Virus record (IMG/VR): IMGVR_UViG_3300046460_000197
Span: 1-62,602 of that record
DNA length: 62,602 nucleotides
Reading direction: 5' to 3' (one strand)
Origin: a virus
Shown here: positions 7,092 to 44,879 of the stretch, one piece after another
Position numbering within the stretch: the first letter of the stretch is position 1
Layout of the letters: each line of letters begins with the position of its first letter
Program-made: the position numbers and the translations under genes
Notes under the pieces: model-generated
What the model was told of the DNA's origin: nothing
Database searches by the model: none
What the model saw: only the letters and a program-made list of their open reading frames with translations

Positions 7092-7130
7092 TCCACCGCC
7101 CCGCCCGCACGCCCCGCAAGGAGAGCCGCC

Positions 7131-7787
7131 GTGAACGACGCCCCGACGCCCGCCTGCATCGTCTGCCGCCACGACCTCTACGCCGACGAATGGGACCGGT
7201 ACTGCTGCCGCCCCTGCCAGGACCGCATCGACGCAGACCTCGCCACCCTCGCCGGCCCCGCCACCTGGCACGACGGCCACCTCGTCTCCGGCCTCTTCGC
7301 CGCCCTCCCCACCGAACTCGAACCCAGCAGCGGCAGCCGCGGCCCGCGCGTCTCCGGCAGCAAAAGCGCCCCCGCCCCCGCCCGCATGGACCCCCTCAGC
7401 CAGAGCGCCCACGGCGGCCTCGTCAACGACCTCGAAGAATGGGTCGGCGACTGGGAATCACGCGGCTACGCCACCCGCTGCCGCGCCGTCCGACCCCAGT
7501 ACCGCATGGACCAGGCCGTCGCGACGCTCCGCTTCAACCTCGACACCGCCGTCCGCCGACACGAAGCGATCAGTTCCTTCGCCGAAGACGTCCGCACGAT
7601 CCGCGGCACCTGCGAAGGGCTCATCGTCGGTGCTCGGCCGCCCAAGCCGCTGCACGCCGCCTGCCACTGCGGAACCCGCATCACCTTCAACCTCAACACC
7701 GAATACCGGCACTGCAAAGGCTGCGGCACCGACTACGGGCACACCGCACTGATCGAACTCGTCCTCGCCGAAAGGCGGGCCGCGTGA
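7131..7787 (+). CDS. Hypothetical protein with two zinc-ribbon-like Cys clusters (218 aa)
   Basis: CIVCRH...CCRPCQ at the N-terminus and CHCG...CKGCG at the C-terminus. Confidence 0.65.
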   Translation: MNDAPTPACIVCRHDLYADEWDRYCCRPCQDRIDADLATLAGPATWHDGHLVSGLFAALPTELEPSSGSRGPRVSGSKSAPAPARMDPLSQSAHGGLVNDLEEWVGDWESRGYATRCRAVRPQYRMDQAVATLRFNLDTAVRRHEAISSFAEDVRTIRGTCEGLIVGARPPKPLHAACHCGTRITFNLNTEYRHCKGCGTDYGHTALIELVLAERRAA

Positions 7788-8236
7788 CCGAGAAGCCCAC
7801 CCCCGAGATCGCCGCGCAACTCCTCGCTGCCCTATGCGGCGAGGCCCCCGCGATCATCTGCCCAACCCGCTGCGAGCCCCGCATGTACGGCGAGCACCAC
7901 GACCCGCCCGCCCCGCACCCCTGGGCCGGACCCGAAGACGTCGCCCATGCCGCCGCGACCGGCCAGCCGGAACCCACCGGGAACTGTGGCTGCAACTGCG
8001 CCCGGGAAGCCACCGCCGAGGAGCAGCTCCGCGCCCGCGTTCGCGCCGCACTCAAAGCCGCAGGCCTCTCCCAAGCCGAGGCCTGCCGCCAACTCGGCTG
8101 CTCCACCAAGCACATGAACATGATGCTCACCGGCAAATCCACCCTCACCCTGACCTGGGCAGAAGGCATCCTCGGCCTCTGCGGACACAGCCTCGTCATC
8201 GACATTCGGCCCGACGACCCCAAGGAGCGGCCGTGA
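7784..8236 (+). CDS. XRE-type helix-turn-helix protein (150 aa)
   Basis: GTG 7784 (GTGA overlap). C-terminal HTH: LKAAGLSQAEACRQLGCSTKHMNMMLTGKSTLTLTWAEGI. Only the last 150 aa of track ORF 6620..8236 look real. Confidence 0.65.
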   Translation: MTEKPTPEIAAQLLAALCGEAPAIICPTRCEPRMYGEHHDPPAPHPWAGPEDVAHAAATGQPEPTGNCGCNCAREATAEEQLRARVRAALKAAGLSQAEACRQLGCSTKHMNMMLTGKSTLTLTWAEGILGLCGHSLVIDIRPDDPKERP

Positions 8237-8448
8237 CCGACCACGCCACCGACCGGCTGCCCATCGTCACCGACAGCCAGGGCCACGCCTACCTCGGCGC
8301 CGACGCCGTCGTCGCGTTGCTGCGGGCCATCGCCGAAAGCTGCCGGACCCTCGCCGACCAGCCCGACTACGGCCTCGACGCGGTCGCCGTCGCCATCGAA
8401 ATGGAGGCCGACAACCTGGACTGCCGGGCGATCATGAGAACCAGATGA
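8233..8448 (+). CDS. Hypothetical protein (71 aa)
   Basis: GTGA overlap; last gene before the strong terminator. Confidence 0.55.
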   Translation: MTDHATDRLPIVTDSQGHAYLGADAVVALLRAIAESCRTLADQPDYGLDAVAVAIEMEADNLDCRAIMRTR

Positions 8449-8449
8449 C

Positions 8450-8488
8450 GAAGGGCCCCTCGACCGCCGTCCGGTCGAGGGGCCCTTC
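8450..8488. terminator. Bidirectional intrinsic terminator hairpin between converging operons
   Basis: Perfect 17-bp stem GAAGGGCCCCTCGACCG / CGGTCGAGGGGCCCTTC with a 5-nt loop. Confidence 0.8.
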
Positions 8489-8495
8489 GCTGTGC

Positions 8496-9625: not shown

Positions 9626-10099
9626 CTATGTGGCCTTGTTGTGCACCACGTTGTGCAGTGGCTTCTCGGTTCGGATGGCGTGGCTCTCGGCATCCAGGGC
9701 TGCTGACCGGCTTTCGAGCCACTCCAGCGAAAGGTCAGCGACCTCCGGCCACCACTCCTTGTCTGCGGCGTGCTGGCCCCAGCGCTGCGGCGGCTTGCTG
9801 CTGATGCCCACGTAGAGGAGCTGGCCAGCGGAGTTGCGAAGGCGGTACAAGGCAGTCGGCTGGAGATCGATCTCGACTTCCGATGCTTTCCGGACCCTCT
9901 TCGGCGCGCGGGCGGCAGCCTCTTCAGCCTCCCCCGCCCGCATCTCCTCCGCCGTCTTCATCCGCACGGCGACCCAGTAGTTCGGTACTTCAGGGTGGGG
10001 CTCATACACGTAGTTCGCGAAGGGGGTTGAGTAGCTCACGATCCAGTCTTCAGGATCCTCGTACATCTGTATCGGATCGCTTCTGGGGGTTGCCGACAT
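9626..10099 (-). CDS. GIY-YIG nuclease family protein
   Basis: 157 aa. LYRLRNSAGQLLYVGISSKPPQRWGQHAADKEWWPEV...ESHAIRTEKPLHNV fits the GIY...YVG...R...E...N pattern. Confidence 0.75.
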   Translation of the reverse strand: MSATPRSDPIQMYEDPEDWIVSYSTPFANYVYEPHPEVPNYWVAVRMKTAEEMRAGEAEEAAARAPKRVRKASEVEIDLQPTALYRLRNSAGQLLYVGISSKPPQRWGQHAADKEWWPEVADLSLEWLESRSAALDAESHAIRTEKPLHNVVHNKAT

Positions 10100-10179
10100 G
10101 CCACTCCTAACCGTGCGAACGCGGACACCCTCGGTCGATGCCCGCCTACGTTGCGCAGCCGTTCTGAACAGGAGCCTCC

Positions 10180-10245
10180 ACTGGTATAGGACCAGTTGTC
10201 AAGATGCCTGAGTTGCCACAGGCGCTGACCTGGTACACGACCGGT
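10180..10245. promoter_or_regulatory. Two GntR/HutC-type operator-like palindromes in a divergent promoter region
   Basis: ACTGGTATAGGACCAGT (10180-10196; arms ACTGGT/ACCAGT) and CCTGGTACACGACCGGT (10229-10245). Low-GC spacer between the GIY-YIG operon and the GntR gene. Confidence 0.5.
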
Positions 10246-10296
10246 CGATTGGGGCAGCTAGACAGGTATCTTGGGCGGTCGTAGACCTGAGGAGGT

Positions 10297-11055
10297 ATGG
10301 CCGTGACGGATCCAGCGCAGAGCAAGAAGCCGCGCTATGAACAGATCGCGGATGAGCTGCGCGCGCGGATCGACGCCGGTGTGTACAGCGAAAGTCGCAA
10401 GCTGCCCAGCGAGAGAGAGCTCTCCGAGGAGTTCGCCACTGCGCGCAACACCGTGCGAGATGCGATCCAGGTGCTTCGCGCCGACGACCTCGTCGAGTCG
10501 CGCGGTGGGTCGGGCGTGTATCTGCGGTCGTTCCGGCGCGTCAAGCGTGACGCCGTCGAGCGGCTCTCCAGGAAGCACTGGGGGGTTGGGCGCGCAATCT
10601 GGGACAAGGATTTGGGGGGGCGCGATCGGAGCGAAGAGGTCGTCGTTGAGACGGTCACGCCGCCCGACGAGATCGCAGGCACCTTGGGTATTCGAGGACG
10701 GCAGGCCCTGATGCGCCGGAGGGTCTTCCAGTCCGAGGGTCGCAAGATCCAGCAGGCAACGTCCTGGTACCCAGCTGACCTTGTAGCGGGTACCGCGATC
10801 GCGGAGCAGGACACAGGGCCGGGTGGCTCGTATGCGCGGCTCGACGAGATCGGGCGCGGGCCGGCGCACTACCGGGAGGAAATCAAGATCCGCCTCCCCC
10901 TCTCGGCTGAAGCGAGGACGCTCGGCATCACGATGAGCACGCCGGTGGTGTTCATCATGCGCACCGCATTCGATGCCGACGATCAGCCCGTCGAAGTCAA
11001 CGAGATGATGCTGGACTCTGACAGCTACACGTTGATCTACACCTTCCCCTCTTGA
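10297..11055 (+). CDS. GntR-family (HutC subfamily, UTRA domain) transcriptional repressor, Kor-like
   Basis: 252 aa. N-terminal wHTH PRYEQIADELRARIDAGVYSESRKLPSERELSEEFATARNTVRDAIQVL, followed by a UTRA-sized C-terminal domain. Confidence 0.85.
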   Translation: MAVTDPAQSKKPRYEQIADELRARIDAGVYSESRKLPSERELSEEFATARNTVRDAIQVLRADDLVESRGGSGVYLRSFRRVKRDAVERLSRKHWGVGRAIWDKDLGGRDRSEEVVVETVTPPDEIAGTLGIRGRQALMRRRVFQSEGRKIQQATSWYPADLVAGTAIAEQDTGPGGSYARLDEIGRGPAHYREEIKIRLPLSAEARTLGITMSTPVVFIMRTAFDADDQPVEVNEMMLDSDSYTLIYTFPS

Positions 11056-11073
11056 CCTGCGCCCGACGCGCAT

Positions 11074-11100
11074 AAGCCCCCGCCGTGACGGCGGGGGCTT
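11074..11100 (+). terminator. Intrinsic terminator after the GntR gene
   Basis: AAGCCCCCGCC-gtgac-GGCGGGGGCTT followed by TCTT. Confidence 0.75.
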
Positions 11101-11115
11101 TCTTGCGTCCGGGTG

Positions 11116-11177
11116 ATTGGTACTAGACAGCTGCTTGCGCTGAGCTGTCTCAGTTGCTTAAGTGGTCCTATACAGGT
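11116..11177. promoter_or_regulatory. Two more HutC-type operator-like sites upstream of the transfer operon
   Basis: ATTGGTACTAGACAGCT (11116-11132) and AGTGGTCCTATACAGGT (11161-11177). The latter shares the 11-mer TGGTCCTATAC, in inverted orientation, with the site at 10180. All four sites fit TGGTA-N3-GAC. Confidence 0.45.
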
Positions 11178-11222
11178 TCCGAGTCCGGGGCCTCCGCCAC
11201 AGCCATGTCTGAAGGGAGAACG

Positions 11223-11462
11223 ATGAGCGACACCGCCCAGGCCCCGGCCCCCAACTCCGAGCGGATGCTCGAAGCAGCAGAGGTTGCCGAACTGCTCAAC
11301 CTGTCGCTGACGGCGGTCTACCGCCTCGCCCGCAGCGGCGCCCTAGAGAGCCACCGCCACGGCCAGGGGTCGATCCGGCCGCGAGGTCTCCGCTTCCCCG
11401 AGTCGGCGGTTGCCGCGCACCTGAACCGCTCCCGCGTCCGCACCGCCACGGAGGTGGCCTGA
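11223..11462 (+). CDS. Excisionase/MerR-type HTH DNA-binding protein (79 aa)
   Basis: ATG 11223 after GAAGGGAGA. LEAAEVAELLNLSLTAVYRLARSGALES. Confidence 0.65.
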   Translation: MSDTAQAPAPNSERMLEAAEVAELLNLSLTAVYRLARSGALESHRHGQGSIRPRGLRFPESAVAAHLNRSRVRTATEVA

Positions 11463-11464
11463 CC

Positions 11465-11650
11465 ATGAGCACCTCGACCCGATCCTTCCGTCCCGCCGCA
11501 ACCCAGCCGGGCCTGTCCCCGGCCGACCGCGCCGCGCATGATCTCGCCACGTTCGTCCGGCGCCCGCTGGCCGCCGACGACCACAGCAAGACGAAAGAGC
11601 CGTTGCCGCAGAGGCCTCGTGGCCCGCACCCGTACCGGAGCGCGTCGTGA
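11465..11650 (+). CDS. Possible small protein (61 aa)
   Basis: Tightly coupled to its neighbours (a 2-nt gap and a GTGA overlap). Composition is Pro/Arg-rich, so uncertain. Confidence 0.4.
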   Translation: MSTSTRSFRPAATQPGLSPADRAAHDLATFVRRPLAADDHSKTKEPLPQRPRGPHPYRSAS

Positions 11651-11841
11651 CCGCCGACCTGGCCCGCCTCGCGGCGGCGCAGACGACGGCCGACGCGGTG
11701 ATCGCCGCGGTGGCCACCCCGATCGACGGCCGGCCGATGTTGCGGATCGCGGTCACCGACCCGGAGACGAACACGCGCCTCGCCACCGGCTTCGTCGCCT
11801 ACAACGCCCCCGGGTTGCGGCTCGTCGAGGGGCCGTCATGA
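11647..11841 (+). CDS. Hypothetical protein (64 aa)
   Basis: GTG start; ATGA overlap with the next gene. Confidence 0.5.
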   Translation: MTADLARLAAAQTTADAVIAAVATPIDGRPMLRIAVTDPETNTRLATGFVAYNAPGLRLVEGPS

Positions 11842-12182
11842 CGGACCAGATGTACCTCCGTCGCTGGCAGCGTGCCGCCTACCGGGCGCTCGGCGAGTTC
11901 CTGAAGGCGGACCTCCCGGCCGTCACGTGGACGATCGCCATCTCCGGCGCCCTGGTCGGCGACGTGGATTCGCTGAGCTCGACGCCGGCCGAGATGCGGG
12001 CCGCGTTCGAAGCCTGGACTGGCTGGCTGAACGCCGAGGGTGTCACGGACCGGATGCGCCAGGACGGCGTCACCCACCTGTACGCGCAGTTCCGGCACGG
12101 CGAGGGGGCGACGGAGGTTCGCGGTGCGATCCGCGCCGACATCTACCCGCCGCTCGACGACGAGCCGGGTGAGCAGCCGTGA
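11838..12182 (+). CDS. Hypothetical protein (114 aa)
   Basis: MTDQMYLRRWQRAAYRALGEFLKADLPAVTWTIAISGALVGDVDS... Confidence 0.6.
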   Translation: MTDQMYLRRWQRAAYRALGEFLKADLPAVTWTIAISGALVGDVDSLSSTPAEMRAAFEAWTGWLNAEGVTDRMRQDGVTHLYAQFRHGEGATEVRGAIRADIYPPLDDEPGEQP

Positions 12183-12346
12183 CCGCCGCCCAGCGCGCCA
12201 AGCTTCACCGCGAGGTCGGCGAGCTCAACGACTGGTCCAGGAAGCGCCCGCAGTAACCCCCTGACCGGCCGTGGCGCGGTCCGACAATCCCCCCGTCCCG
12301 CGCCACGGTCACCCACCTCCCACCACGCCCTTGAAAGGCCACCGCC

Positions 12347-12580
12347 ATGTCTCTTCGCCTGATCATCTCCGCGCCGTCCGTGATCGCCGACCCGTTCGAC
12401 GCCGCGGAGGCCGACCTCCGGGCCCGCTACGTCGCCGACTACCTGGCCGACTCCCGCAGCGGCGACGTGATCGCCCGCGACTGGACGCTCTACGAGATCG
12501 AGATGTACGACGCCGCGAACCCCGGCCAGCCGCTGCTGATGGACGAGATCCGCGGCCTGGACTTCCCGGCCGCCGCCTGA
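12347..12580 (+). CDS. Hypothetical protein (77 aa)
   Basis: MSLRLIISAPSVIADPFDAAEADLRARYVADYLADS... Confidence 0.6.
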   Translation: MSLRLIISAPSVIADPFDAAEADLRARYVADYLADSRSGDVIARDWTLYEIEMYDAANPGQPLLMDEIRGLDFPAAA

Positions 12581-12662
12581 CCCCACAAGCCGCCGGGCGC
12601 GGGAATCCCCCGCCCGCGCCCGGCACCCCGTCCCATCCGAACCCAACCGAGAGGAAACCGTC

Positions 12663-12869
12663 ATGGCCCTGTTCAAGAAGACCCCCACCGAGAAGGCCGA
12701 CATCGCCGCCCTGCGCGCCGCCGACGCCGAGCTGCACGCCAACCAGCGGCGCGAGGAGAAGGCCGGGATCCGCGAGGAGACCCCCGAGTACGTGCGCCTC
12801 AACACGGCCGCGAACGAGGCCGCCGCGAAGGTCTCCCGCTGGCATGGCGGCACCAGGCGAGGCAAGTGA
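12663..12869 (+). CDS. Hypothetical charged small protein (68 aa)
   Basis: RBS GAGAGGAAACCGTC precedes the ATG. MALFKKTPTEKADIAALRAADAELHANQRREEK... Confidence 0.6.
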   Translation: MALFKKTPTEKADIAALRAADAELHANQRREEKAGIREETPEYVRLNTAANEAAAKVSRWHGGTRRGK

Positions 12870-13078
12870 TGGGCCTCTTCAGTCGGAAACGCAACGTCGA
12901 CGCCAGCCCCGGCACCAACCCCCGCGGCGGCCAGCCTGTCCGTACCGACCGTGAGTTCTGGACCGGCCTCGCCGAGGACGCCGAACGCCGAGCCGCACAG
13001 GCCGACAGCAAGGAAGGGCGCAAGGCCATGGAGAAGAACGCCCGGGACTTCCGGCGCCGCTCCACCGGCAGGCCCTGA
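12866..13078 (+). CDS. Hypothetical charged small protein (70 aa)
   Basis: GTGATG overlap with the upstream gene. MMGLFSRKRNVDASPGTNPRGG... Confidence 0.55.
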   Translation: MMGLFSRKRNVDASPGTNPRGGQPVRTDREFWTGLAEDAERRAAQADSKEGRKAMEKNARDFRRRSTGRP

Positions 13079-13115
13079 CCGTTCGTTCGATCCGACCAGC
13101 CCGAGAGGAACCCCA

Positions 13116-13412
13116 GTGCACGCCTACCTGATCACCGCGAAGCCGGGCCGGCTCAGCCGGACGGTCCGGGCCGTGGGCCGGTGTGCGCTGCGGTCCCTCG
13201 CCCTGACCGTGATGGCCGGCCTCGGCGCCGTCGTCTTCACCGTCCGCTGTGCCCGGCCCGTCATCAACTACCTGGCGACCCGGGCCGCATGGCTGGAGCT
13301 GTGGGCCGCGTCTGTCACCGGGATCGGCCCGGTCGGGGCCGCCGTCGGGTCTGGCCTCGCCGACGAGTTCGTCCGTGAATTCCACAAGGCGCGCACCAGC
13401 GCGTCCGCCTGA
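13116..13412 (+). CDS. Small membrane protein (98 aa), Spd-like position
   Basis: GTG 13116 after GAGAGGAA. Two hydrophobic helices: LALTVMAGLGAVVFTV and AASVTGIGPVGAAVGSGL. Confidence 0.55.
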   Translation: MHAYLITAKPGRLSRTVRAVGRCALRSLALTVMAGLGAVVFTVRCARPVINYLATRAAWLELWAASVTGIGPVGAAVGSGLADEFVREFHKARTSASA

Positions 13413-13426
13413 AGGGACTGAGAACC

Positions 13427-14689
13427 GTGACCGCCACATCCGTCGAGCAGGTCAACGGAACCGCCGTGACCCGGCCTGAGCGCGGCTTCGACGCCGTCGC
13501 CCTCGCCGAGGCGGATGCGATCCGCGCCCGCACCGCCGCCGAGACGGAAGCCGCCCTCATGAAGGCGCAGGCCGAAGCCGACGCGATCCGCGCCAAGGCG
13601 GAGGCCGACGCTGAGAAGCAGCGGCTCGCGAACCGGCGCCAGGCCATCACCCTGGAGGAGAAGGAAGCCGACCACGCCGAGAAGATGGCCGAGTCCGATC
13701 GCCGCCGCAAGGAATCCGAGCGGCTCGCCCGCCAGGCCGAGGAGCAGGCCGCAGCCGAGCAGGAGGCGGCCGGCCAGCAGGCGGCAGAGATGGCGGACGC
13801 CGACGAGAAGTGGCGCAAGTACGCGATCCGCTTCGCCATCGTCTGCGGCATCGTGTCCCTGCCCGTGCAGATGTCGTTCTTCTGGAACAGGGAAGCGCCC
13901 TGGATGGCCGCCGCCCCGATCATGCTGGAAGGCGCCGCCTGGGTCGTCCACCGTGGCGCCCGCGCGGCAGCCGTCGGCAACCGGCCGGTGTGGCACTACC
14001 GCACGATCGTCTGGCTGCTCGCCTTCATCGCCGCCGCGGTGAACCTCTACCACGGGCTTCACTCCTTCGACCCGGGCACCGCCCTGTCGACGGCGTTCGC
14101 ATCCATCGCCGGCCCGGGCGTCTGGGACCTTCACGAGCACGGCCGGCTCCGCAGGCGCGGCGACACGCCTACCCGCCGCGAGCGCAAGGCCGCCGAGAAG
14201 GAAGCGAAGCGGATCGCCGCCGAGCAGGCCGAGCGCGAGCTGCGCGAATCCGAGAGGCAGGCATACCGCGAGAAGGCCGCACGCGAGGCGGCGGCACAGC
14301 TCGCCGCCGACCGCGAGGCGAAATTCCCCAAGGTGTGGGAGCACGCGCTGAAGCTTGCCGCGGACCTCGGCGAGACGACTGTCACCCAGGCCATCTGGAA
14401 GCAGGCGAAGCTCGACGTCGAGGGCGCACTCCCCGGCGAATCGGCTGACGTCATCCGCATGCGCAACGCCGCCGAGGCGAGGGTCGAAGCCGCCCGCGAG
14501 AAGCGCTCGGTGAACGGATCAACGGCGCAGGTCGCTTCGCAAGTGCTCGGCCCGAAGAAGCCCCGCGTGTACAACCCGCCCGCACGCCGCGGGAAGCGCA
14601 CCAAGGGCGACGTCCAGTACTCGGCCGGAGCGCGCCGCCAGGCCTCTCTCGCGGCCCGCAACGCCACTGCCAAGAAGGACCCGTCATGA
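13427..14689 (+). CDS. DUF2637/SpdB-like integral membrane protein with charged coiled-coil flanks
   Basis: 420 aa. AE/K/R-rich coiled-coil N- and C-terminal regions flank about 4 TM helices (YAIRFAIVCGIVSLPVQMSFFW, TIVWLLAFIAAAVNLYHGL...). Lies immediately upstream of, and overlaps, the TraB-like gene, as in Streptomyces plasmids and AICEs. Confidence 0.6.
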   Translation: MTATSVEQVNGTAVTRPERGFDAVALAEADAIRARTAAETEAALMKAQAEADAIRAKAEADAEKQRLANRRQAITLEEKEADHAEKMAESDRRRKESERLARQAEEQAAAEQEAAGQQAAEMADADEKWRKYAIRFAIVCGIVSLPVQMSFFWNREAPWMAAAPIMLEGAAWVVHRGARAAAVGNRPVWHYRTIVWLLAFIAAAVNLYHGLHSFDPGTALSTAFASIAGPGVWDLHEHGRLRRRGDTPTRRERKAAEKEAKRIAAEQAERELRESERQAYREKAAREAAAQLAADREAKFPKVWEHALKLAADLGETTVTQAIWKQAKLDVEGALPGESADVIRMRNAAEARVEAAREKRSVNGSTAQVASQVLGPKKPRVYNPPARRGKRTKGDVQYSAGARRQASLAARNATAKKDPS

Positions 14690-16749
14690 GCCTCGACCAG
14701 CACCCGGAGTTCCCCGCCGGATGGGACCTCGACAAGGTGATCCCCGGCGAGCTGCATGTGCCCGACGACCTGTCCGGCGAGGACATCGCGCCCGGAATCG
14801 TCGTCCCCTACCGGCCTCGCCCGGCCGTCCTGTCGAAGGCGGGCTCGGCCGGCATGGTGGTCGCCGCGACAACCGGCCGCGCCTGCGGGCTCACCGCCCG
14901 CTGGTTCTTCACCGGCGCCGCCTCGGTCGGTTTCCTCGGCTGGCGGTACGTCCGCGCCCACGACCTCCAGGAGACTCTCGGCGGCATGTCGAAGTCCTCC
15001 GACTGGAACAAGGTCGACATCGTCCGCAAGAAGCGGTGGAAGACCCTCGGCTGGACGGCCGGTATCACCGCCGGGCTCAACCTGGCTGGCTGGTGGGCGC
15101 TCGTGAAGTTCGGCGGCATGACCGCCACCGACTGGTCCTGGAAGATCCCGCCCGCCCTCACCGCAGCCGCCCTCTTCGCCGCGGTCACCTGGTACGGCCG
15201 CTACCGCACGAACAGCCCCGGCATCGCCCCCCAGATGCTCGTCGCCGACCAGGACAACCCGGGCGAAGACGAGCCGTTCCCGATCTCCTGGGTCACCGGC
15301 GGCGACCAGGCCGCCGACTGCCTCGGCCGCGCCCTGTACGCCGAGGGCGTCGATTACCGGGCGGTGACCACGCTGACCCGCCACGACTGGGGATGGGAGC
15401 TGGAGGTTGTCCTCAAGGGCGCGACCCCCGGCGGCGTCCAGGCCAAGGCCGACCAGCTGGAATCCCGTCTCGGCTTGCCTGACGGCGGCTTCATGATCGA
15501 GCCGGACTCGCGGGACAAGTCCCGGATCACCGTCCGCCTCGTGCAGTCCAACCCGTTCGCCGACATGCCCCGCCCTGCTGTTCACGCCCCCCGCTCGCTG
15601 TCGGTCCATGACACCGTCGCCATGGGGCGGGCCATGGACGGCAGCGTCTTCGAGCTCACTCTCGACGGATTCTGTGCGCTCATCATCGGCGCGATGGGGG
15701 CGGGCAAGACACTCGGTGCCCTTCGGACGATCAACGAGGCGCTCACCGCCTGCCGGGACGCTGTCGTCTGGGACCTCGACCCCATCAAGGGAGGTCTCGG
15801 CGAGTTCGGCGACCTGATGGAGCGCCGCGCCCGCACCCCCGAGGAGTGCGAGGAGGCTCTCGACGACGCCCTCGCCTACGTGACGGCGCGCGGCAAGCTG
15901 CTGCCCAGCCTCCACATGGGGGACCGCTGGCACGCCACCCCGGAGCACCCCAACCTCTACATCAACATCGACGAGTTCATCCAGCTCAGCCCCCGTGGCA
16001 AGGAAACCGCGATCAAGATCCTGCGCACGGGCCGCCAGTACGGCATCTACCTGCTCCTGGCCGGCCAGGAGGCCACCGCCGACGCCCTCGGCGACGCCAT
16101 CGCCATGATCGTCGCGTACCGGATCCTCATGTCCTGCCGCTTCGAGGACATCAAAATCGCCTTCGGCCCCGGCGCGGGAGCGCAGGGCTGGCGCCCCGAC
16201 CGGATGAAGCCCGCCGTCGGGCCCGTCGCCAACGACGCAGGACAGGCCATGATCATGGGCGGCCCCTTCAACCGGGCCATCCGCCACCAGTTCAACAGCT
16301 ACACCCGAGAACAGATCACCGCCTGCCTCGACGACCGCATCATGGCCGGCGTCAACCGCATGGACGGCGACACCATCCTCAAGGCGGGAGCCACCCTCAC
16401 CACGGCCAGCCAGCGCGACAACCTGGCCGAACGGCTCGACGCCATCACCCACGAGGACGCCCCCCTCATCGCCGTCCTGCTGCGCACCTTCGAGGCACAG
16501 GACCGAGGCTTCCTGCCGACCGGCGAGGTGCTGCTGCCCACCCTGGCCGCCGCAGGAGTCGCCGGCGTCGACGCCACCGCGCTCGCCAACCGGATCCGCA
16601 AGCACGCCCCGGGCGCCAAGGCGGACCGCGCCGACTGCACCGAAGGCAAGTACCTGCGCGGATGGAACCGCAGCGAGGTCGAAAGGGCCGCCGCCGGCCT
16701 GCTGGACCCGGCACAGACCCGGCAGAACCCTGGCACAAGGGCGGCGTAG
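14686..16749 (+). CDS. traB: FtsK/SpoIIIE-family dsDNA translocase, TraB-like (Streptomyces conjugation type)
   Basis: 687 aa. N-terminal TM helices, Walker A ALIIGAMGAGKTLG, Walker B LYINIDEFIQL, and a C-terminal segment with wHTH-like character. Confidence 0.85.
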   Translation: MSLDQHPEFPAGWDLDKVIPGELHVPDDLSGEDIAPGIVVPYRPRPAVLSKAGSAGMVVAATTGRACGLTARWFFTGAASVGFLGWRYVRAHDLQETLGGMSKSSDWNKVDIVRKKRWKTLGWTAGITAGLNLAGWWALVKFGGMTATDWSWKIPPALTAAALFAAVTWYGRYRTNSPGIAPQMLVADQDNPGEDEPFPISWVTGGDQAADCLGRALYAEGVDYRAVTTLTRHDWGWELEVVLKGATPGGVQAKADQLESRLGLPDGGFMIEPDSRDKSRITVRLVQSNPFADMPRPAVHAPRSLSVHDTVAMGRAMDGSVFELTLDGFCALIIGAMGAGKTLGALRTINEALTACRDAVVWDLDPIKGGLGEFGDLMERRARTPEECEEALDDALAYVTARGKLLPSLHMGDRWHATPEHPNLYINIDEFIQLSPRGKETAIKILRTGRQYGIYLLLAGQEATADALGDAIAMIVAYRILMSCRFEDIKIAFGPGAGAQGWRPDRMKPAVGPVANDAGQAMIMGGPFNRAIRHQFNSYTREQITACLDDRIMAGVNRMDGDTILKAGATLTTASQRDNLAERLDAITHEDAPLIAVLLRTFEAQDRGFLPTGEVLLPTLAAAGVAGVDATALANRIRKHAPGAKADRADCTEGKYLRGWNRSEVERAAAGLLDPAQTRQNPGTRAA

Positions 16750-16768
16750 CCCCGGCAGACCCCCGGCG
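16705..16768. repeat. clt-like cluster of GACCCGG-type direct repeats at and after the traB 3' end
   Basis: GACCCGGCA at 16705 and 16716 (11-bp phasing), then GAACCCTGGCA 16725, CCCCGGCA 16750 and GACCCCCGGCG 16758. The cluster spans the stop codon at 16747-16749. Confidence 0.4.
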
Positions 16769-16876
16769 GAGATTCACGGCATCGGCGCAGGTCGCCGGGT
16801 GTGCGCCGGGGTCCCGCCGCCCCCGCGCCACCCGATTGATCCCTAAATGTGAAGTCAGCCGACCGAGGAGTCCGAC

Positions 16877-17644
16877 ATGCCGCCCGCGAAGCGCGCCCCG
16901 GCCCGCCGCACCACCCGCAAGCCGTCCGCGCGCAGCCACCCCGCCCGCCGCGTCAAGATCCCCAAGAAGGCGGGCCCGCTCCACGCCCGCCTCGGCGCGA
17001 AACTCGCACTCGTCGCCGTCTCCCACCTCGACACCCACACCGACCTCCTCCAGTCCCGCAAGGACGCCGCCATCCTCCGCGCCACCCACAAAGGCTGCCC
17101 CACCTGCAAAGGCAACGGGCAGATCTTCACCAAGGGCAAGGACGGCTCCTTCACCGGCTCCAAGCCCTGCCCGGCCAAGCCGACCAAGCAGCGCACATCC
17201 CGCTGGGAGGTGTACAAGGCGTCCCGGTTCGGCGCCGACAAGAACACCGGCCTCGTCGGCTGGGCCTGCCCGTGCGGGAAGAAGGAAAAGCCCCGCTACC
17301 GCGACGCCCGGCTCGCCACCAAGGCGCTACGGGCCCATGAGAAGAAGAAGCATGGCGGTCAGACCGTCGGGGGCGCCTGGTACGCGCAGACCGCCGACGC
17401 CGCCCAGACGGTCCCCACCCCACAGCAGCAGCCCGCCGTGTCGAAGGTCGTCACCGACTCCGGCATGACGGACGAGCAGTGGATCAAGCAGAACAAGAGC
17501 CTCCACCCCGGCAAAGCCATCGCCCAAGGCCTGTGCTGGATGTGCGCCGGCGAGCGCAAGCTCCACGGCGCCTTCGGCGGCCAGCAGATCGTCGCCATCT
17601 GCCCCGAATGCAAGGGCAACGGCAAAGCCCCCACCGCAGCCTGA
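16877..17644 (+). CDS. Basic protein with DnaJ-type CxxCxGxG zinc-finger motifs (255 aa)
   Basis: CPTCKGNG, CPCGKK, CWMCAGERK and CPECKGNG. Lys/Arg-rich N-terminus. Confidence 0.65.
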   Translation: MPPAKRAPARRTTRKPSARSHPARRVKIPKKAGPLHARLGAKLALVAVSHLDTHTDLLQSRKDAAILRATHKGCPTCKGNGQIFTKGKDGSFTGSKPCPAKPTKQRTSRWEVYKASRFGADKNTGLVGWACPCGKKEKPRYRDARLATKALRAHEKKKHGGQTVGGAWYAQTADAAQTVPTPQQQPAVSKVVTDSGMTDEQWIKQNKSLHPGKAIAQGLCWMCAGERKLHGAFGGQQIVAICPECKGNGKAPTAA

Positions 17645-17666
17645 CACCCAAGGAGACCCACCCGCC

Positions 17667-18146
17667 ATGTACCAGCTGCCCGAGCCGCCCGCCGCCTCCG
17701 CGGCCGGGCAGACCCCCATCGACGACCAGGCACAGAAGCTCCTCGCAGCAGTCGAGGACGCCATGCGCACCCCCACCTCCTACCGCGACGACACCCCCGT
17801 GCCCCGGATCGGCACCGCCCCGCCCGTCCAGCAGCCCGGCCTCCCCGCGATGAGCCCGCGGGCCACCGATGCGGCCCGGCTGATGATGTACGGCGGGCTC
17901 GCCACCGTCCCGCCCGGGATCGTCCTCACCGCCGTCCTCCTCGCCAGCGAGCACGCCGACCCCACCATTGTCGGGATCATCTTCGGCGCGCCCATCGCGC
18001 TCGTCCTCGCCGTCGCTCGACTCGCCGCCCGCGCCAAGGGCGTCCTGCCCGCCGAGCAGCACCAGCACTTCCACGGCACCGTCCACCAGCAGACCACCCA
18101 CAGCCGCACCAGCGGCGTGTGGGCCCGAACCGACAACCGGCAGTAG
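17667..18146 (+). CDS. Membrane protein (159 aa), Spd-like
   Basis: Two TM helices: LMMYGGLATVPPGIVLTAVLLA and IVGIIFGAPIALVLAVARL. Confidence 0.6.
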   Translation: MYQLPEPPAASAAGQTPIDDQAQKLLAAVEDAMRTPTSYRDDTPVPRIGTAPPVQQPGLPAMSPRATDAARLMMYGGLATVPPGIVLTAVLLASEHADPTIVGIIFGAPIALVLAVARLAARAKGVLPAEQHQHFHGTVHQQTTHSRTSGVWARTDNRQ

Positions 18147-18189
18147 GCCGCCGGGCGTTGTCAGTGGCGAGTGATACGACAGGATCGAT

Positions 18190-18993
18190 ATGGCACACGG
18201 AAACTACTTCACACCGACGACGGTGAAGGATGCCCGTTGCGGCGTCCGCCGCAGCGTTGCCCACCTCATGACGCTCGTCGACACTGAAGAACCGGCGTTC
18301 CCCAGCATCGCCACCGCCCTCCAGGACATGGCCAACGCCGGCGTCGAACTGACCGAGGACATGGTCTCGGCCGCCGTGAAGATGGGGCGCCAGAAGCACG
18401 CGGACGAGCAGGCGAAGCGTCACAACGCCCCGGAGCGGCGGTCCATCGTCTACTACATCCGACGCGGACAGCTCATCAAAATCGGGACAACGACGAATCC
18501 AGCCTCTCGCTTCAAGTCGCTCATGCCGGACGAAATACTCGCCTTCGAGCCTGGCCACGTGGATGTGGAACGTGCGCGGCATCAGCAGTTCCATGCCAGT
18601 CGAGTGGCGCGGAAGAGCGAGTATTTCCACTGGACTGATGAGCTGGCTACGCACGTCGCTGTCTTGCGCAAGCGGCACGGTGAGCCCGATCCTGCGTGGC
18701 CCACCATGGCCACCCTTGGGACCGGATACATCCGCACCAAGGTCAAGCCCGAGCTTCCTGACCCCACCAGCGGCGAGACGGCCACAGCTACCGACGGCGC
18801 AAAGTTGCTCGGGATGAACCGGTCCACCGTGCAAGGCTGGGTGCACCGCGGGCTGATTACGGCTGCGGGCCGGGATGAGAAGGGTCGGCCCCTTTACTAC
18901 GTCGATCACATGCGCTTCATCATCGAGCGGAACCGCTCCTGGCAGAACCACAAGAAGCATCGGTCGAACGACGCCACGTCCGTACCTTCTTGA
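18190..18993 (+). CDS. T5orf172/MUG113 (GIY-YIG-like) domain protein with C-terminal HTH
   Basis: 267 aa. VYYIRRGQLIKIGTTTNPASRFKSL...ERARHQQFHASRVARKSEYFHW, plus the HTH GAKLLGMNRSTVQGWVHRGLI. Confidence 0.7.
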   Translation: MAHGNYFTPTTVKDARCGVRRSVAHLMTLVDTEEPAFPSIATALQDMANAGVELTEDMVSAAVKMGRQKHADEQAKRHNAPERRSIVYYIRRGQLIKIGTTTNPASRFKSLMPDEILAFEPGHVDVERARHQQFHASRVARKSEYFHWTDELATHVAVLRKRHGEPDPAWPTMATLGTGYIRTKVKPELPDPTSGETATATDGAKLLGMNRSTVQGWVHRGLITAAGRDEKGRPLYYVDHMRFIIERNRSWQNHKKHRSNDATSVPS

Positions 18994-19096
18994 CAATCTG
19001 ACCAGCACCGAAGCAAACTGCGATCAATCTAGTACACGTGTCTTGAGGGTCATCGCGCACGCGGTGGCCCTTTTGCGTTCCTGAGGGAGGTGCACG

Positions 19097-19324
19097 ATGC
19101 CTCCCGGCTACGTCACCGCCGCAGACGCCGCCTGGTACGCGGGCGTCCCCGTTGGCACCATCTGGCGCTGGGCCTCCGAAGGTCGCATCACGAAGACCGG
19201 CAAGGGCAAGCAGGCCCGCTACCGGGTGCACGACCTTCCCCACGGGCGCCGCGACGAATACACGCGCGAGCTGCTCGAACCCGGCAAGCCGCCCGCCCTG
19301 CCCGAAGGATGCCGCGCCGCCTGA
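19097..19324 (+). CDS. Excisionase-type HTH DNA-binding protein (75 aa)
   Basis: VTAADAAWYAGVPVGTIWRWASEGRITKTGKG; RBS GAGGGAGG. Confidence 0.65.
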   Translation: MPPGYVTAADAAWYAGVPVGTIWRWASEGRITKTGKGKQARYRVHDLPHGRRDEYTRELLEPGKPPALPEGCRAA

Positions 19325-19344
19325 CCGCCCCGCCGTCCCTGCCA

Positions 19345-19364
19345 CCCCGCCGCGAACGGCGGGG
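19345..19364 (+). terminator. Hairpin after the HTH gene
   Basis: CCCCGCCG-cgaa-CGGCGGGG followed by CTTC. Confidence 0.55.
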
Positions 19365-19397
19365 CTTCACCTTCAGCCTGTCGAGAGGATGCCCGCG

Positions 19398-19844
19398 ATG
19401 GCGAACATCACCTTCAACGTTGCCCTCGGCCGCGCGGCATCGCTTGCCGCGCTGCCCGCCGCGAGCGACGCCCTCATCCTCATTCCGCTGGAGGCCGGCG
19501 GACTGGAAGCGGACTCCGTCTTGCGCGACAAGGACACCCTGGCCGACGTCGTGTCGGGCACCACGAACGAGCAGACCACTGTCGGCCGGAAGACCCTCTC
19601 CGGCGTCACCGTCGCGGTCAACGACACGGCCGACCGCGTGGAGATCGACGCCGCAGACGTCACCTGGACTTCGCCCACCGGCAACGCGGTCGGCGCGATG
19701 GTCATCTGCTACGACCCGGACGGCACCGGCGGCACCGACGCCGACCTGATCCCGGTCACCAAAGCGGATGTCACGTGGTCGCCGGACGGGACCACCTTCA
19801 CCCTGACCGTGGCCGACTTCTTCCGGGCGAGCTCCACCTCGTAG
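19398..19844 (+). CDS. Hypothetical beta-rich protein, possibly virion-associated (148 aa)
   Basis: ATG 19398. MANITFNVALGRAASLAALPAASDALILIPLEAGG... Adjacent to a fibre-like gene. Confidence 0.6.
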   Translation: MANITFNVALGRAASLAALPAASDALILIPLEAGGLEADSVLRDKDTLADVVSGTTNEQTTVGRKTLSGVTVAVNDTADRVEIDAADVTWTSPTGNAVGAMVICYDPDGTGGTDADLIPVTKADVTWSPDGTTFTLTVADFFRASSTS

Positions 19845-19846
19845 CC

Positions 19847-20917
19847 GTGACGACCTTCAGTGACGACTTCAATCGCGCCAACTCCACCGACCTCGGGCCC
19901 AACTGGGTGGAGGTCAGCGGAGACTGGTCGATCGTCTCGAACCAGCTCTCACCTGGAGCGGCTGGCGGGACGATCATCCTGCGCGCCGCCGGAGCGATGG
20001 CCGGCAACGACCACTCGGCGCAGTTCACAATCGCCGCCACCACGGCGGCGAGCCAGGGCGTGTGGTGCCGCGGCAACAGCAACATCAGCCAGGGCTACCT
20101 GTGGCGCAACGACGGCAGCTCCTGGAATCTGTTCAGCGTCGTGGGCGGCAGCTTCACCAGCATCGGCAGCTTCGCCGGAGCCGCGGCCCCTGGCGACGTC
20201 GCGAAAGTCCAGGCCGTCGGGTCGGCGATTAAGGGCTACGTCAACGGCGTCGAGCGCGTCAGCGTCACCAACACCGCCGTAACGACCGGCACCAGCGTCG
20301 GCATCCGCTCGGAGTCGGTGGGCGCTCTCCGGTTTGATGATTTTGCCGCTGCCGATGTGACCGCCGGCGCGACCCTCGGTGTTGCGGCTGCCACGGAGAC
20401 CGCACAGCCGCTGACCGGCAGCAAGGCGACAATGCTCAGCCCTGCCGCCGAAACCGATGCAACGCAGCCCCTCGCGGGCGCTAAGACCGCAGCCCTGGGC
20501 ACCGCCACCACGTCCGAAGCGGCGCAGCAACTGGCCGGCAGCAAGATGGGCACACTCGGCACCGCAGCCGAAGTCGACGCCCCGCAGGCGCTCACCGGAT
20601 CCAAGACGGCGGCACTGCCCTCCGCAGCAGAAACCGAGACCGCACAGCCCCTCACGGGCACGAAGAGCCGAAGCCTCGGCACAGCCGAATCCGCCGAGGT
20701 AGCCCAGCATCTGACGGGCGCCAAAGGCGCCACCCTCGGCCCGGCCGAGGAAATCAGCACCGCGAGACCCCTCGCCACGGCTGGCAGCACCGCCGCGGAC
20801 ATCGACCTCACCGTCGACGCCCCCTACAGCCCGTGGGCGGTAGGCGCACCGCAAGGCCAAGTCTGGCCCCCAGGCAAGCCGCAGCGCAGCGACTGGGAGG
20901 TGACTGAACCGTGGTGA
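19847..20917 (+). CDS. Fibre/receptor-binding-like protein: lectin/LamG-like N-domain plus 20-aa tandem repeats
   Basis: GTG 19847, 356 aa. N-terminus FSDDFNRANSTDLGPNWVEVSGDWSIVSNQL...GYLWRNDGSSWNLFSVVGG, then about 6.5 copies of QPLTGSKxxxLGxAAExxxA. Confidence 0.65.
   Translation: MTTFSDDFNRANSTDLGPNWVEVSGDWSIVSNQLSPGAAGGTIILRAAGAMAGNDHSAQFTIAATTAASQGVWCRGNSNISQGYLWRNDGSSWNLFSVVGGSFTSIGSFAGAAAPGDVAKVQAVGSAIKGYVNGVERVSVTNTAVTTGTSVGIRSESVGALRFDDFAAADVTAGATLGVAAATETAQPLTGSKATMLSPAAETDATQPLAGAKTAALGTATTSEAAQQLAGSKMGTLGTAAEVDAPQALTGSKTAALPSAAETETAQPLTGTKSRSLGTAESAEVAQHLTGAKGATLGPAEEISTARPLATAGSTAADIDLTVDAPYSPWAVGAPQGQVWPPGKPQRSDWEVTEPW
20384..20800 (+). repeat. In-frame 60-bp tandem repeat array (about 6.5 copies)
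   Basis: The CAG codon of the Q-P/Q/A/H-L-T/A-G motif recurs at 20405, 20465, 20525 and so on. Copies are divergent but clearly periodic. Confidence 0.7.
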
Positions 20918-21210
20918 TTCCAGCCAGCAGTACCGAGTTCGTGCATGTCACCGTCACCGTGCCTGCCGGAGTCGATGTCACCAACACACCCCCGAAGCTT
21001 GCAATCCTGCCCGTCTCGAACCGGGACAACCCGGTGCCTGACGACTGGCACGCGGGCGACTGGGCAGAAGGCGCCGAGGCTCGGCTCCTCGTCGGACCCG
21101 ATGGTGGCGTGGTCACACTGGCCAAGGGCGACTATCGGGTCTACGTCAGCTTCGATCCGCCCGGCAGCGAGAACATCGTGCGTCTGTCGGGATACCTCGG
21201 CATCACCTAG
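20911..21210 (+). CDS. Hypothetical Ig-like/beta-sandwich-like protein (99 aa)
   Basis: GTG start overlapping the upstream gene. ...STEFVHVTVTVPAGVDVTNTPPKLAILPVSNRD...GDYRVYVSFDP. Confidence 0.6.
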   Translation: MVIPASSTEFVHVTVTVPAGVDVTNTPPKLAILPVSNRDNPVPDDWHAGDWAEGAEARLLVGPDGGVVTLAKGDYRVYVSFDPPGSENIVRLSGYLGIT

Positions 21211-41338: not shown

Positions 41339-41403
41339 CCACCCCGCTCGCCCCCTGCCAGCCCCGCGCCGACCGGCCGGGGCTTCCTCATGTCGGAGAC
41401 CTC

Positions 41404-44878: not shown

Positions 44879-44879
44879 C

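Follow-up and report, generated by a model that had tools for sequence, protein, structure and literature searches.

Can a tailed phage carry, as part of its own genome, the apparatus by which Streptomyces plasmids pass double-stranded DNA (dsDNA) between hyphae? The question is raised by IMG/VR virus record IMGVR_UViG_3300046460_000197, a stretch of 62,602 nucleotides that is called the window here, at its full length. An earlier note, made from its letters alone, had described at 10100-19330 a block combining a GntR/UTRA repressor, a series of small proteins, a 420-residue membrane protein, a 687-residue FtsK/SpoIIIE-like translocase, a zinc-finger protein and a further membrane protein, and profile scans, motif inspection and hydropathy analysis found each of these where the note had put it (Table 1). 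The block is a rightward operon between replication and packaging genes, tightly packed and with several 4-nt overlaps. Our reading, held with moderate confidence, is that it forms a complete Streptomyces-type module for dsDNA transfer and spreading and belongs to this temperate siphophage as a regular component maintained by selection. The module probably serves the virion-independent transfer or hyphal spread of phage DNA. What the analysis shows directly is its gene content, the predicted fold of the translocase, homology and synteny with plasmid transfer loci, a repeat array that co-varies with the translocase, operator sites, conservation among prophages and purifying selection; control of the operon by the repressor, binding of TraB to the array and the transfer of DNA are inferred.

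Predicted FtsK motor fold of the TraB-type translocase

The translocase has intact Walker motifs (Walker A, GAMGAGKT, at residue 335; Walker B, LYINIDEF), and the start of its gene overlaps the end of the gene for the 420-residue protein by 4 nt. An AlphaFold model was built with 26 homologues in the alignment (predicted local distance difference test score, 73.7) and was compared with the PDB by Foldseek. The top matches were to the FtsK motor (6t8g and 2ius; E 4e-13 to 1e-11, template-modelling score 0.6-0.68 on the target) and span about 400 columns; next in rank came TcpA, a conjugative coupling protein, and EccC, a type VII ATPase. As modelled, the protein has the FtsK motor fold, and it is the structural comparison that settles the fold, with an FtsK motor as best PDB match (E 4e-13); by sequence alone the relation is weak, a PDB profile search returning FtsK at E 0.01. 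Long helices are predicted at residues 55-176. They are amphipathic or hydrophobic, and their hydrophobic stretches are only moderate (Kyte-Doolittle 0.9-1.1) for the N-terminal transmembrane helices proposed earlier. At the other end, residues 592-680 follow the order helix-strand-helix-helix-strand-strand-helix in the model, which suggests a winged-helix-like domain.

The translocase matches phrog_12531 (E 1.4e-91). Its homologues in cultured phages are solely genes annotated as 'FtsK-like DNA translocase', in 91 records of lytic BE-cluster Streptomyces phages of ~130 kb (37-43% identity over residues 151-591, E about 1e-78). The best plasmid matches are to pFP1 and its relatives (32-37% identity, E about 1e-60; pFP1 TraB itself, 32% over 516 residues, E 8e-61), and identity to pIJ101 Tra is 25% across the motor core. 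More than 120 protein clusters are at least 50% identical to the translocase; their annotation reads hypothetical or FtsK/SpoIIIE, and without exception they derive from Streptomyces genomes or metagenomes. When 1.84 billion representatives were searched exhaustively, 349 relatives came up, of which 74 reached E 1e-30 or better.

In a neighbour-joining tree drawn for the motor domain without support values, the prophage translocases form one clade of two subclades, sister to the pFP1-family plasmids together with the BE-cluster phages and with pZL12 as outgroup. Members of the prophage clade are always accompanied by Spd-like neighbours, so that the translocase does not group solely with orphan phage FtsK-like genes; such a grouping had been named in advance as fatal to the idea of a transfer module. 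As a separate observation, the Streptomyces albidocamelliae chromosome (locus L041, 10001-11020) matches residues 341-680 of the translocase alone, at 77% identity; no other gene of the cassette was found near this fragment, which is probably a decayed remnant of the module.

A clt-like repeat array at the end of traB

A clt-like element had been named earlier with no coordinates. It can be placed across the traB stop codon, over the last 15 traB codons and the 128-bp gap to the next gene, where its architecture and a short core are those found behind pFP1 traB. Direct repeats with a CCCGGC core start at 16707, 16718, 16751 and 16762 in a single 11-bp phase, the 8-mer GACCCGGC being read from 16705 and 16716. 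The array continues with a spacer containing GCAGGTC and then with inverted copies at 16794 and 16805. It is the densest CCCGGC/GCCGGG cluster in the window, with 6 copies in a stretch of 140 bp, where the mean is 0.30. The 8-mer GACCCGGC was rejected as a polar signal acting across the genome, since with one mismatch allowed it matches 176 times and 209 matches are expected; significance is confined to the local phased cluster.

An array occupies the same position in every relative examined, usually in a cleaner form. In loci L003-L008 and L010, ACCCGGC/GCCGGGT recurs every 11 bp in 6-8 copies, against 0.1-0.4 expected, and L009 has 4. The repeat word is CCCGTCT in L011, CTGCTCG in L013, L015, L017 and L026, CTGCTCA in L016 and L018, CTGCTAC in L014, and CTCTAC in pFP1, pSLUN2 and the NBC_00285 plasmid. 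Which word is present follows the type of C-terminal domain in TraB, and within the second prophage subclade the correspondence extends to subtypes. This co-variation is not a coding artefact, because in the second subclade (loci of the CTGCTC and CTGCTAC types) the repeats lie wholly downstream of the traB stop.

The arrays of both prophage subclades and of the pFP1-family plasmids, despite their differing words, share a core, CGCAGGTC(A). It lies at 16786-16793 in the window, at about 21920-22100 in L002 and just past the traB stop in L013-L018. Two inverted copies of this core enclose the array in pFP1 and in the second prophage subclade, and it may act as a promoter, a second binding site or a processing site. 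A search of the 7 kb on either side of the FtsK-like gene of phage Peebs, and of the sequence after pZL12.71c, found no such array. The recognition word of pSVH1, which we take to be GACCCGGA, would be one base off the window's GACCCGGC. Known clt regions contain direct 8-bp repeats that are read by the cognate TraB (PMC4447253), and the clt of pIJ101 consists of an imperfect inverted repeat and direct repeats (PMC3583192). We infer that the array is the cognate clt of this translocase, with the TraB C-terminal domain as its predicted reader.

Membrane and zinc-finger partners

The 420-residue protein encoded immediately upstream of traB fits the architecture of SpdB2 in its composition and hydropathy, which suggests an integral membrane protein of that type. 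Its N-terminal third (residues 1-130) is 67% A/E/K/R/Q and coiled-coil-like; a hydrophobic core at residues 132-238 holds segments at 134-152, 157-175 and 193-211 and a weaker fourth; and residues 241-420 are basic, with a net charge of +16. The SpdB2 of pSVH1 has about 410 residues, with an N-terminal coiled coil, four central transmembrane helices and a C-terminal oligomerisation/DNA-binding domain (PMC4447253). The transmembrane core also matches the DUF2637 protein of pFP1 (tblastn E 4e-11, blastp E 1e-9). Among 15 homologues of the 420-residue protein, Pfam DUF2637 matches four, weakly (best E 0.0024). A tblastn search of plasmids with this protein returned two records, in both of which the gene is not beside a TraB, and a tblastn search of 50,697 phage records returned no match.

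Two further partners lie downstream of the array. The 255-residue protein contains two CxxCxGxG motifs (CPTCKGNG and CPECKGNG) and matches Pfam DnaJ_CXXCXGXG and Anti-TRAP weakly. Homologues at 56-77% identity are present in 15 of the 16 IMG/VR loci, and its finger matches the open reading frame (ORF) directly 3' of pFP1 traB (E 1.5e-4). The 159-residue protein has two strong transmembrane segments and is 45% identical (E 1e-34) to pZL12.70c, encoded immediately 3' of the pZL12 tra gene; pZL12 is its sole match among the 50,697 phage records.

Upstream, the conserved membrane protein of 98 residues, whose gene had not been singled out before, has homologues at 55-87% identity in 15 of the 16 IMG/VR loci, and most genome loci have one as well. 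The small ORFs that precede it (11465-13078) gave no match in Pfam, NCBIfam or PHROG and are Spd-like in position and size only. Four ORFs in this run are 82-95% identical to called genes of prophage L020 and a fifth, 11838-12182, is 68% identical; no L020 homologues of 11465-11650 and 11647-11841 were found. Of the kinship to Spd and DUF2637 families that had been proposed for the flanking proteins, the transmembrane core of the 420-residue protein shows a match to the pFP1 member; none was found for the small ORFs.

The first gene of the operon encodes a 79-residue DNA-binding protein of the excisionase family, which scores 29.8 bits against the NCBIfam 'excise' domain (cut-off 28.8) and also matches PHROG excisionase families.

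The GntR repressor and its operator-like sites

The GntR protein at the head of the block is 29% identical to KorA of pIJ101 (E 4e-15, in a small database), 30% identical to the GntR of pFP1 (E 5e-13) and 28% identical to pZL12.80. Operator-like palindromes of the GntR/HutC type flank its gene. With up to three mismatches CTGGTATAGGACCAG occurs at three sites in the 62.6-kb window (10181, 10230 and 11162) against 0.65 expected, and all three flank gntR; the strong site at 11162-11176 lies ~50 bp upstream of the first ATG of the operon, at 11223. In L010, whose GntR is 71% identical, operator sites occupy equivalent positions, those at the operon start lying at 5144 and 5189, and L027 has one operator-like site, at 5120, downstream of its gntR. 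A terminator-like hairpin, followed by TTTCTT, would close the gntR transcription unit. This pattern fits autoregulation together with control of the operon, as for TraR and KorA, and agrees with the Kor-like role first proposed for the protein; binding of GntR to the sites is predicted. A scan for promoter and terminator consensus sequences was uninformative in the high-GC DNA of the window.

Two observations concern the neighbourhood of the repressor gene. A GIY-YIG nuclease gene (9626-10099, minus strand) is divergent from gntR, and the same arrangement occurs in the distant relative L027 (Streptantibioticus; TraB 60% identical), where the nuclease gene lies at 3548-4234. Since the set of GIY-YIG (minus strand), GntR and HTH_17 genes is present in both, these three genes travel together. 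In about one-third of the related cassettes the GntR gene is replaced by paired minus-strand genes for NUDIX hydrolases (L020, 4923-5902; L025, 4644-5629; also L032, L034, L039 and L040). The transfer-immunity factor Pif of pSAM2 is a NUDIX protein.

Conservation, selection and mobility of the cassette

Four genes make up the core of the cassette, those for the 98-residue membrane protein, the SpdB2-like protein, TraB and the zinc-finger protein, and the gene for the 159-residue protein often accompanies them. Altogether the core recurs in about 35 prophage loci: nearly all of the 16 IMG/VR loci, 4 assembly loci with gene calls and Pfam marks, and about 15 species-representative genomes of Streptomyces and Streptantibioticus, the close translocase homologues lying on chromosomal contigs of 0.2-10 Mb. 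The combination had been thought unusual; it is common in Streptomyces prophages. The cassette as now defined extends through 18146, and the remainder of the block to its originally proposed end at 19330 has to be set apart. The gene at 18190-18993 is missing from all related loci and the one at 19097-19324 is present in few, and 18190-19324 is variable cargo outside the conserved cassette.

Ratios of nonsynonymous to synonymous substitution rates (dN/dS) were computed against the closest relative, L020, whose TraB is 92% identical. They are 0.13 for TraB, 0.15 for the 98-residue protein, 0.26 for the 159-residue protein, 0.35 for the zinc-finger protein and 0.50 for the SpdB2-like protein, values that place the core genes under purifying selection by this comparison.

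At least three unrelated packaging types lie downstream of the cassette among its carriers: one with Terminase_4/TerL_ATPase and an HK97-type portal; one with Terminase_6N and an SPP1-type portal on the opposite strand; and that of the window itself. In all relatives whose late genes were located, the module stands immediately upstream of them. Pfam and NCBIfam profile scans found no integrase or replication gene within 10100-19330, the block is not flanked by direct repeats of more than 13 bp, and both integrases of the window lie outside it. Because the packaging modules vary and these marks of an independent element are lacking, the cassette is best regarded as a phage module that moves by modular exchange. 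A nested AICE (actinomycete integrative and conjugative element) or an inserted plasmid was rejected on the same grounds, and with it the strict sense of the phage/AICE chimera first suggested: AICEs are compact elements bounded by att repeats, with their own integrase, replication gene and tra gene (PMC3218068, PMC2440964), and prophage-like loci were explicitly set aside in AICE surveys (PMC3218068). A megablast search of the block against the 50,697 phage records gave no match.

Relation to known transfer systems

The nearest plasmid counterpart in gene order is the pFP1 family (pFP1, NC_006912; pSLUN2; the NBC_00285 plasmid), theta-replicating conjugative plasmids with the closest plasmid homologues of the TraB. 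In pFP1 a GntR gene, three small ORFs, a DUF2637 protein, TraB and a zinc-finger ORF of ~258 residues follow in the order of the window, so that four genes (GntR, SpdB2/DUF2637-like, TraB and zinc finger) bear out the idea of a Streptomyces plasmid-type transfer and spread module on a phage. The array after the traB stop has the same design and the same CGCAGGTC core, with the word CTCTAC in place of CCCGGC. Unlike that of the window, the pFP1-family regulator is transcribed divergently, and the plasmid TraB is longer (about 860-930 residues). The pSLUN2 and NBC_00285 plasmids have an additional small gene for an RRQRL zinc-binding protein before traB, and the family carries many more spd-like genes after traB and a MOBF relaxase-like gene, but no phage genes. 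In work by Zhang et al. in 2008, pFP1 traB was reportedly the major functional gene for transfer.

The nearest counterparts in kind are pZL12 (GQ919031, 'Streptomyces phage ZL12') and pFP4, which, like the window, hold a siphovirus structural set and a Streptomyces-type transfer locus on one replicon. The order in pZL12 is GntR (pZL12.80), small ORFs, a membrane protein (73c), 72c, the FtsK-like Tra (71c), 70c and packaging genes, which is the layout of the window, and 70c is the homologue of the 159-residue protein noted above. The two differ in that pZL12 is a 90-kb plasmid prophage maintained by ParAB, whereas the phage of the window is 62.6 kb long and encodes a tyrosine integrase and a CI-like repressor; the translocases are distant (24.5% identity over 265 residues, E 7e-5), and pZL12 lacks the array after tra and has an additional 766-residue gene between the membrane protein and Tra. 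According to later papers that cite the pZL12 work, transfer of pZL12 requires the major tra gene and two adjoining genes (PMC3583192), and the plasmid-phages pZL12 and pFP4 provide an experimental precedent for a phage that also conjugates (PMC3583192, PMC4170104). Judged by gene content, the window shares with these plasmid-phages the combination of phage genes and a transfer locus on one replicon, but not autonomous maintenance by ParA/ParB, neither of which was found in a Pfam scan of its called genes.

The plasmids pSVH1, pIJ101 and pJV1 and AICEs such as pSAM2 share the logic of the module, with a single FtsK-like pump, a clt of short direct repeats that the C-terminus of the pump recognises, an SpdB2-type partner and a GntR-family Kor (PMC4447253). 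They are remote from the window in sequence, and their hosts are plasmids or AICEs of 8-25 kb rather than a 62.6-kb virus. The BE-cluster phages (Peebs, Samisti12 and NootNoot; phrog_12531) are lytic, twice the size of the window, and have a different translocase C-terminal domain. In Peebs (L001) the FtsK-like gene (6680-8494) stands alone among transfer RNA (tRNA) genes, and no SpdB2-like, zinc-finger, 159-residue or GntR neighbour was found within 7 kb on either side. SpdB2 homologues have been reported in the temperate actinophages phiC31 and VWB, with the suggested role of spreading phage DNA (PMC4447253). That protein differs from the 420-residue protein of the window, which has no counterpart among the phage records by tblastn. 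We know of no TraB or clt partner in phiC31 and VWB.

The phage genome that carries the block

Genes of the window were called by third-position GC content (GC3) and then scanned against Pfam, NCBIfam and PHROG. The gene set is phage-like throughout and is that of a temperate siphophage of 62.6 kb. In addition to the features in Table 1, the replication and early genes include those for a YqaJ exonuclease and a C5 cytosine methyltransferase, and the structural and lysis set comprises an HNH endonuclease, an SPP1-type portal, an HK97-type capsid (Phage_capsid), a tail tube, a 1329-residue tape measure, Dit and Amidase_2. The terminase shares ~60% identity with its counterparts in the Streptomyces phages Dubu, phiSASD1 and Kromp. 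Both ends of the window share 21 identical bases and an ORF from 62202 crosses the junction in frame; for these two reasons the assembly is taken to be a closed circle of about 62.58 kb. Gene content and circular ends together confirm a complete temperate tailed phage on a closed genome, with the terminase, portal, capsid, tail, lysis, integrase and repressor genes that the earlier note had listed. No tRNA genes were found in the window.

Iteron-like repeats span the circular junction (62496-62602 and 1-50). They comprise GGTCCGGTGACCGGACCCC, with GGGGTCCG and GGTCCGGT each occurring 4-5 times per 100 bp, and they sit within the read-through ORF, upstream of an ORF for an AAA+ loader-like protein and of DnaB. 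The junction ORF probably encodes the replication initiator and contains the origin, an arrangement like that of pFP1-type rep/iteron loci. These repeats were rejected as a candidate clt, since inside a replication-initiator ORF they are more simply origin iterons. The window thus carries an iteron-bearing replication gene and DnaB, with which a plasmid phase remains compatible.

Several other features of the genome are recorded for completeness. Three ORFs at 19152-21210, between the transfer cassette and the HNH and terminase genes, are 53-78% identical to those in prophage L020. One gene in this interval (19775-20917) has a 380-residue product in which a 13-residue unit patterned as AETETAQPLTGSK recurs imperfectly about 8 times; Tandem Repeats Finder reported nothing in the window, including for this repeat at the DNA level. 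A 517-residue protein with a C-terminal D-glucuronyl C5-epimerase domain (Pfam E 1.5e-20) is encoded at 41269-42822, immediately upstream of the amidase endolysin, and is an unusual neighbour for a lysis and tail-end region. Between the lysis genes and the integrase, at 44400-50050, genes lie in mixed orientation; they include the second tyrosine recombinase.

Table 1. Features of the transfer block and of the surrounding phage genome, in window coordinates.
Feature	Coordinates	Strand	Basis or remarks
DnaB helicase	about 1150-2543		replication/early gene
Operator-like palindromes (GntR/HutC type), two	CTGGTATAGGACCAG 10181-10195; CTGGTACACGACCGG 10230-10244	.	divergent promoter region upstream of gntR
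GntR-family repressor, HutC subfamily (winged helix-turn-helix (HTH) and UTRA)	10297-11055	+	Pfam GntR E 2e-18, UTRA E 2.3e-18
Terminator-like hairpin	11062-11112	+	GCCCCCGCCGT/ACGGCGGGGGC, then TTTCTT; 25-nt arms, 80% complementary, 1 nt apart
Operator-like sites at operon start	strong, CCTGTATAGGACCAC 11162-11176 (minus strand); weaker, TTGGTACTAGACAG 11115-11128	.	palindrome scan, sequence reading
Excisionase-family HTH_17 DNA-binding protein, 79 aa (amino acids)	11223-11462	+	operon gene 1; Pfam HTH_17 E 1.1e-9
Small ORFs	11465-11650, 11647-11841, 11838-12182, 12347-12580, 12663-12869, 12866-13078	+	ORF lists, GC3
Membrane protein, 98 aa	13116-13412	+	transmembrane segment at aa 83-101 of longer ORF; conserved core member
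SpdB2-like integral membrane protein (predicted), 420 aa	13427-14689	+	composition, hydropathy, pFP1 homology
TraB-type FtsK-fold dsDNA translocase (predicted), 687 aa	14686-16749	+	Walker motifs, AlphaFold/Foldseek, homology
clt-like locus	16700-16835	.	CCCGGC-core repeats across traB stop codon
Zinc-finger protein, 255 aa	16877-17644	+	CxxCxGxG, two copies; conserved core member
Membrane protein, 159 aa	17667-18146	+	two strong transmembrane segments; phrog_19266 E 4.4e-48; frequent cassette member
MUG113/T5orf172-type nuclease-like protein, C-terminal HTH	18190-18993	+	Pfam; variable cargo
HTH_17 protein, 75 aa	19097-19324	+	Pfam; variable cargo
Terminase large subunit (TerL)	22800-24428		phrog_19179, E 8.5e-148
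ROS/MucR-type regulator	46012-46551		mixed-orientation region
Second tyrosine recombinase	46657-47697		mixed-orientation region
Protein with LexA DNA-binding domain	48246-48668		mixed-orientation region
Second GntR protein, HTH only	49396-49857	minus	mixed-orientation region
Tyrosine integrase (Phage_integrase)	51070-52332	minus	adjoins CI-like repressor
HTH_3 CI-like repressor	52673-53260	minus	Pfam

Discussion

The simplest reading of the locus is that a working TraB-clt-Spd apparatus would act in cis on the phage genome. We favour transfer or spreading over a purely intracellular role because the translocase is in the constant company of membrane proteins, because a plasmid-type clt lies beside it and because the block has a separate repressor circuit. 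Several results weigh against this reading. Of the profile checks proposed at the outset, those for GntR and UTRA are strong, but Pfam FtsK_SpoIIIE scores 15.6 bits on the translocase against a cut-off of 24, the NCBIfam equivalog NF041214 (plasmid_TraB) scores 37 bits (E 1.5e-9, aligned to the motor core only) against a cut-off of 800, and Pfam DUF2637 (PF10935) gives no match to the 420-residue protein of the window even at E 10. Against pIJ101 SpdB that protein gives a marginal match (E 0.005, six sequences being searched, by profile alignment with untrimmed N-termini), and the small ORFs show no demonstrable kinship to any Spd protein. The module thus falls short of the curated thresholds for the canonical pSVH1/pIJ101-type families; by sequence, the translocase is a distant relative, not an equivalog, of pSVH1-type TraB. 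The array of the window, with its 6 core copies, is more degenerate than those of its relatives with 6-8 good copies, and in the subclade of the window the first repeats encode the C-terminal tail of TraB, so that part of the co-variation there is trivial. This overlap weakens the co-variation argument within that subclade, not overall. A GntR gene is found in only about half of the related loci: it lies upstream in 5 of the 16 IMG/VR loci, and none was found in 6 loci with the full 10 kb of upstream sequence. The pairing of GntR with the cassette is therefore not obligatory, as about half of the cassettes have no GntR within 10 kb and some have a NUDIX pair. Lastly, the closest translocases of cultured phages, those of the lytic 130-kb BE cluster, stand in Peebs without Spd-like or GntR neighbours and without an array.

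The alternative with most in its favour confines the module to one mycelium, where during infection or induction phage genomes would cross septa and no conjugation between mycelia would take place. Such a device would enlarge the productive zone or lysogenise a whole hypha, and the intramycelial spreading of plasmids needs both Spd proteins and TraB. The position of the module directly upstream of the late genes in relatives would suit expression within the lytic programme, and a related translocase is kept by the lytic BE-cluster phages. A repressor of its own, operators and a terminator-bounded regulator gene nevertheless point to control apart from the lytic cascade, and the NUDIX pairs of the relatives recall immunity between donor and recipient. 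The pFP1 locus, moreover, is said to be one for conjugal transfer. The homologous locus of pZL12 is described as a conjugal transfer locus (PMC3583192). Sequence does not separate the two modes, which may coexist; restriction to one mycelium seems to us unlikely.

A second alternative gives the translocase a part in the handling of phage DNA or in host takeover, through genome resolution or segregation, spore partitioning or interference with FtsK-dependent septation, in which case the array would serve loading or regulation. The category in which PHROGs places the nearest family is 'moron, auxiliary metabolic gene and host takeover', the Peebs orthologue is isolated among tRNA genes, and FtsK-like genes in Streptomyces phages have been tied, without data, to host development or replication, while as a rule they are annotated with no known role (PMC11536984, PMC13587820). 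An FtsK-like pump is evidently useful to BE-cluster phages in the absence of partners, and a role other than transfer therefore keeps some weight. An integrating prophage has, however, no need of a partition device, and the constant SpdB2-like and membrane partners, the gene-by-gene synteny with plasmid tra loci and the plasmid-like clt argue for a transfer machine, which leaves this alternative improbable.

It is very improbable that the block serves defence, exclusion or immunity, or that it is the decaying remnant of a plasmid or AICE carried along: weak PADLOC matches (MADS HTH components and AbiEi), the nuclease-like MUG113/T5orf172 and HTH genes at its right end, which resemble defence-island cargo, and the truncated TraB of L041 would be in keeping with it, but the PADLOC matches are short HTH matches only, on which ground a defence system was rejected, the block has no integrase, replication gene or flanking repeats, and the core genes are intact, translationally coupled, under purifying selection and conserved in dozens of prophages with differing structural modules, a pattern not to be expected of a relic.

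A transfer and spreading module would be expected to work as follows. The GntR/UTRA repressor would bind the palindromes at its own promoter and at that of the operon and hold the operon off, in a Kor-like role. On its relief the operon would supply the excisionase-family HTH protein, the small proteins and membrane proteins, the SpdB2-like protein as a pore or scaffold, TraB as a hexameric pump, and the zinc-finger protein. The TraB C-terminal domain would read the phased clt-like repeats at the end of its own gene, on circular phage DNA that is excised or replicating, and TraB and its membrane partners would pump dsDNA through the wall or septum into a neighbouring hyphal compartment or a contacting mycelium. 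The phage genome could then spread or lysogenise without virions, beside ordinary infection by particles.

On a wider view, which we offer tentatively as a possible one, there is a large, mosaic lineage of integrating temperate Streptomyces siphophages with a second, virion-independent route of infection, in which the derepressed prophage excises, possibly through the excisionase-like product of the first operon gene, and TraB pumps it by way of the phage clt into neighbouring compartments and contacting recipient mycelia, so that conjugation would spread lysogeny; in the integrated prophage the same clt could also mobilise the adjoining host chromosome in the manner of an Hfr (high frequency of recombination) element. 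The principle of a phage with a conjugative locus is already known from pZL12 and pFP4. In the literature searched we found no description of widespread integrating temperate phages with a conserved pFP1-type cassette of TraB, clt, SpdB2-like and zinc-finger components, nor of repeat words that differ by lineage in step with the TraB C-terminus. The new element, integrating phages with a widespread cassette, is of solid specialist interest rather than a categorical surprise.

If the module works as proposed, many Streptomyces prophages move in two ways, by particle and by hyphal contact. Transfer by contact would sidestep receptor specificity and would alter the view of how lysogeny spreads in soil mycelia, and with a TraB pump at its side a prophage clt could lead to the mobilisation of chromosomal DNA, biosynthetic gene clusters among it. 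Each lineage pairs its own TraB C-terminus with its own repeat word, and these pairs would form a natural set for decoding recognition by TraB, and the many unexplained 'FtsK-like' genes of actinophages would gain a concrete hypothesis. The boundary between phage, plasmid and AICE would be blurred beyond the two known plasmid-phages.

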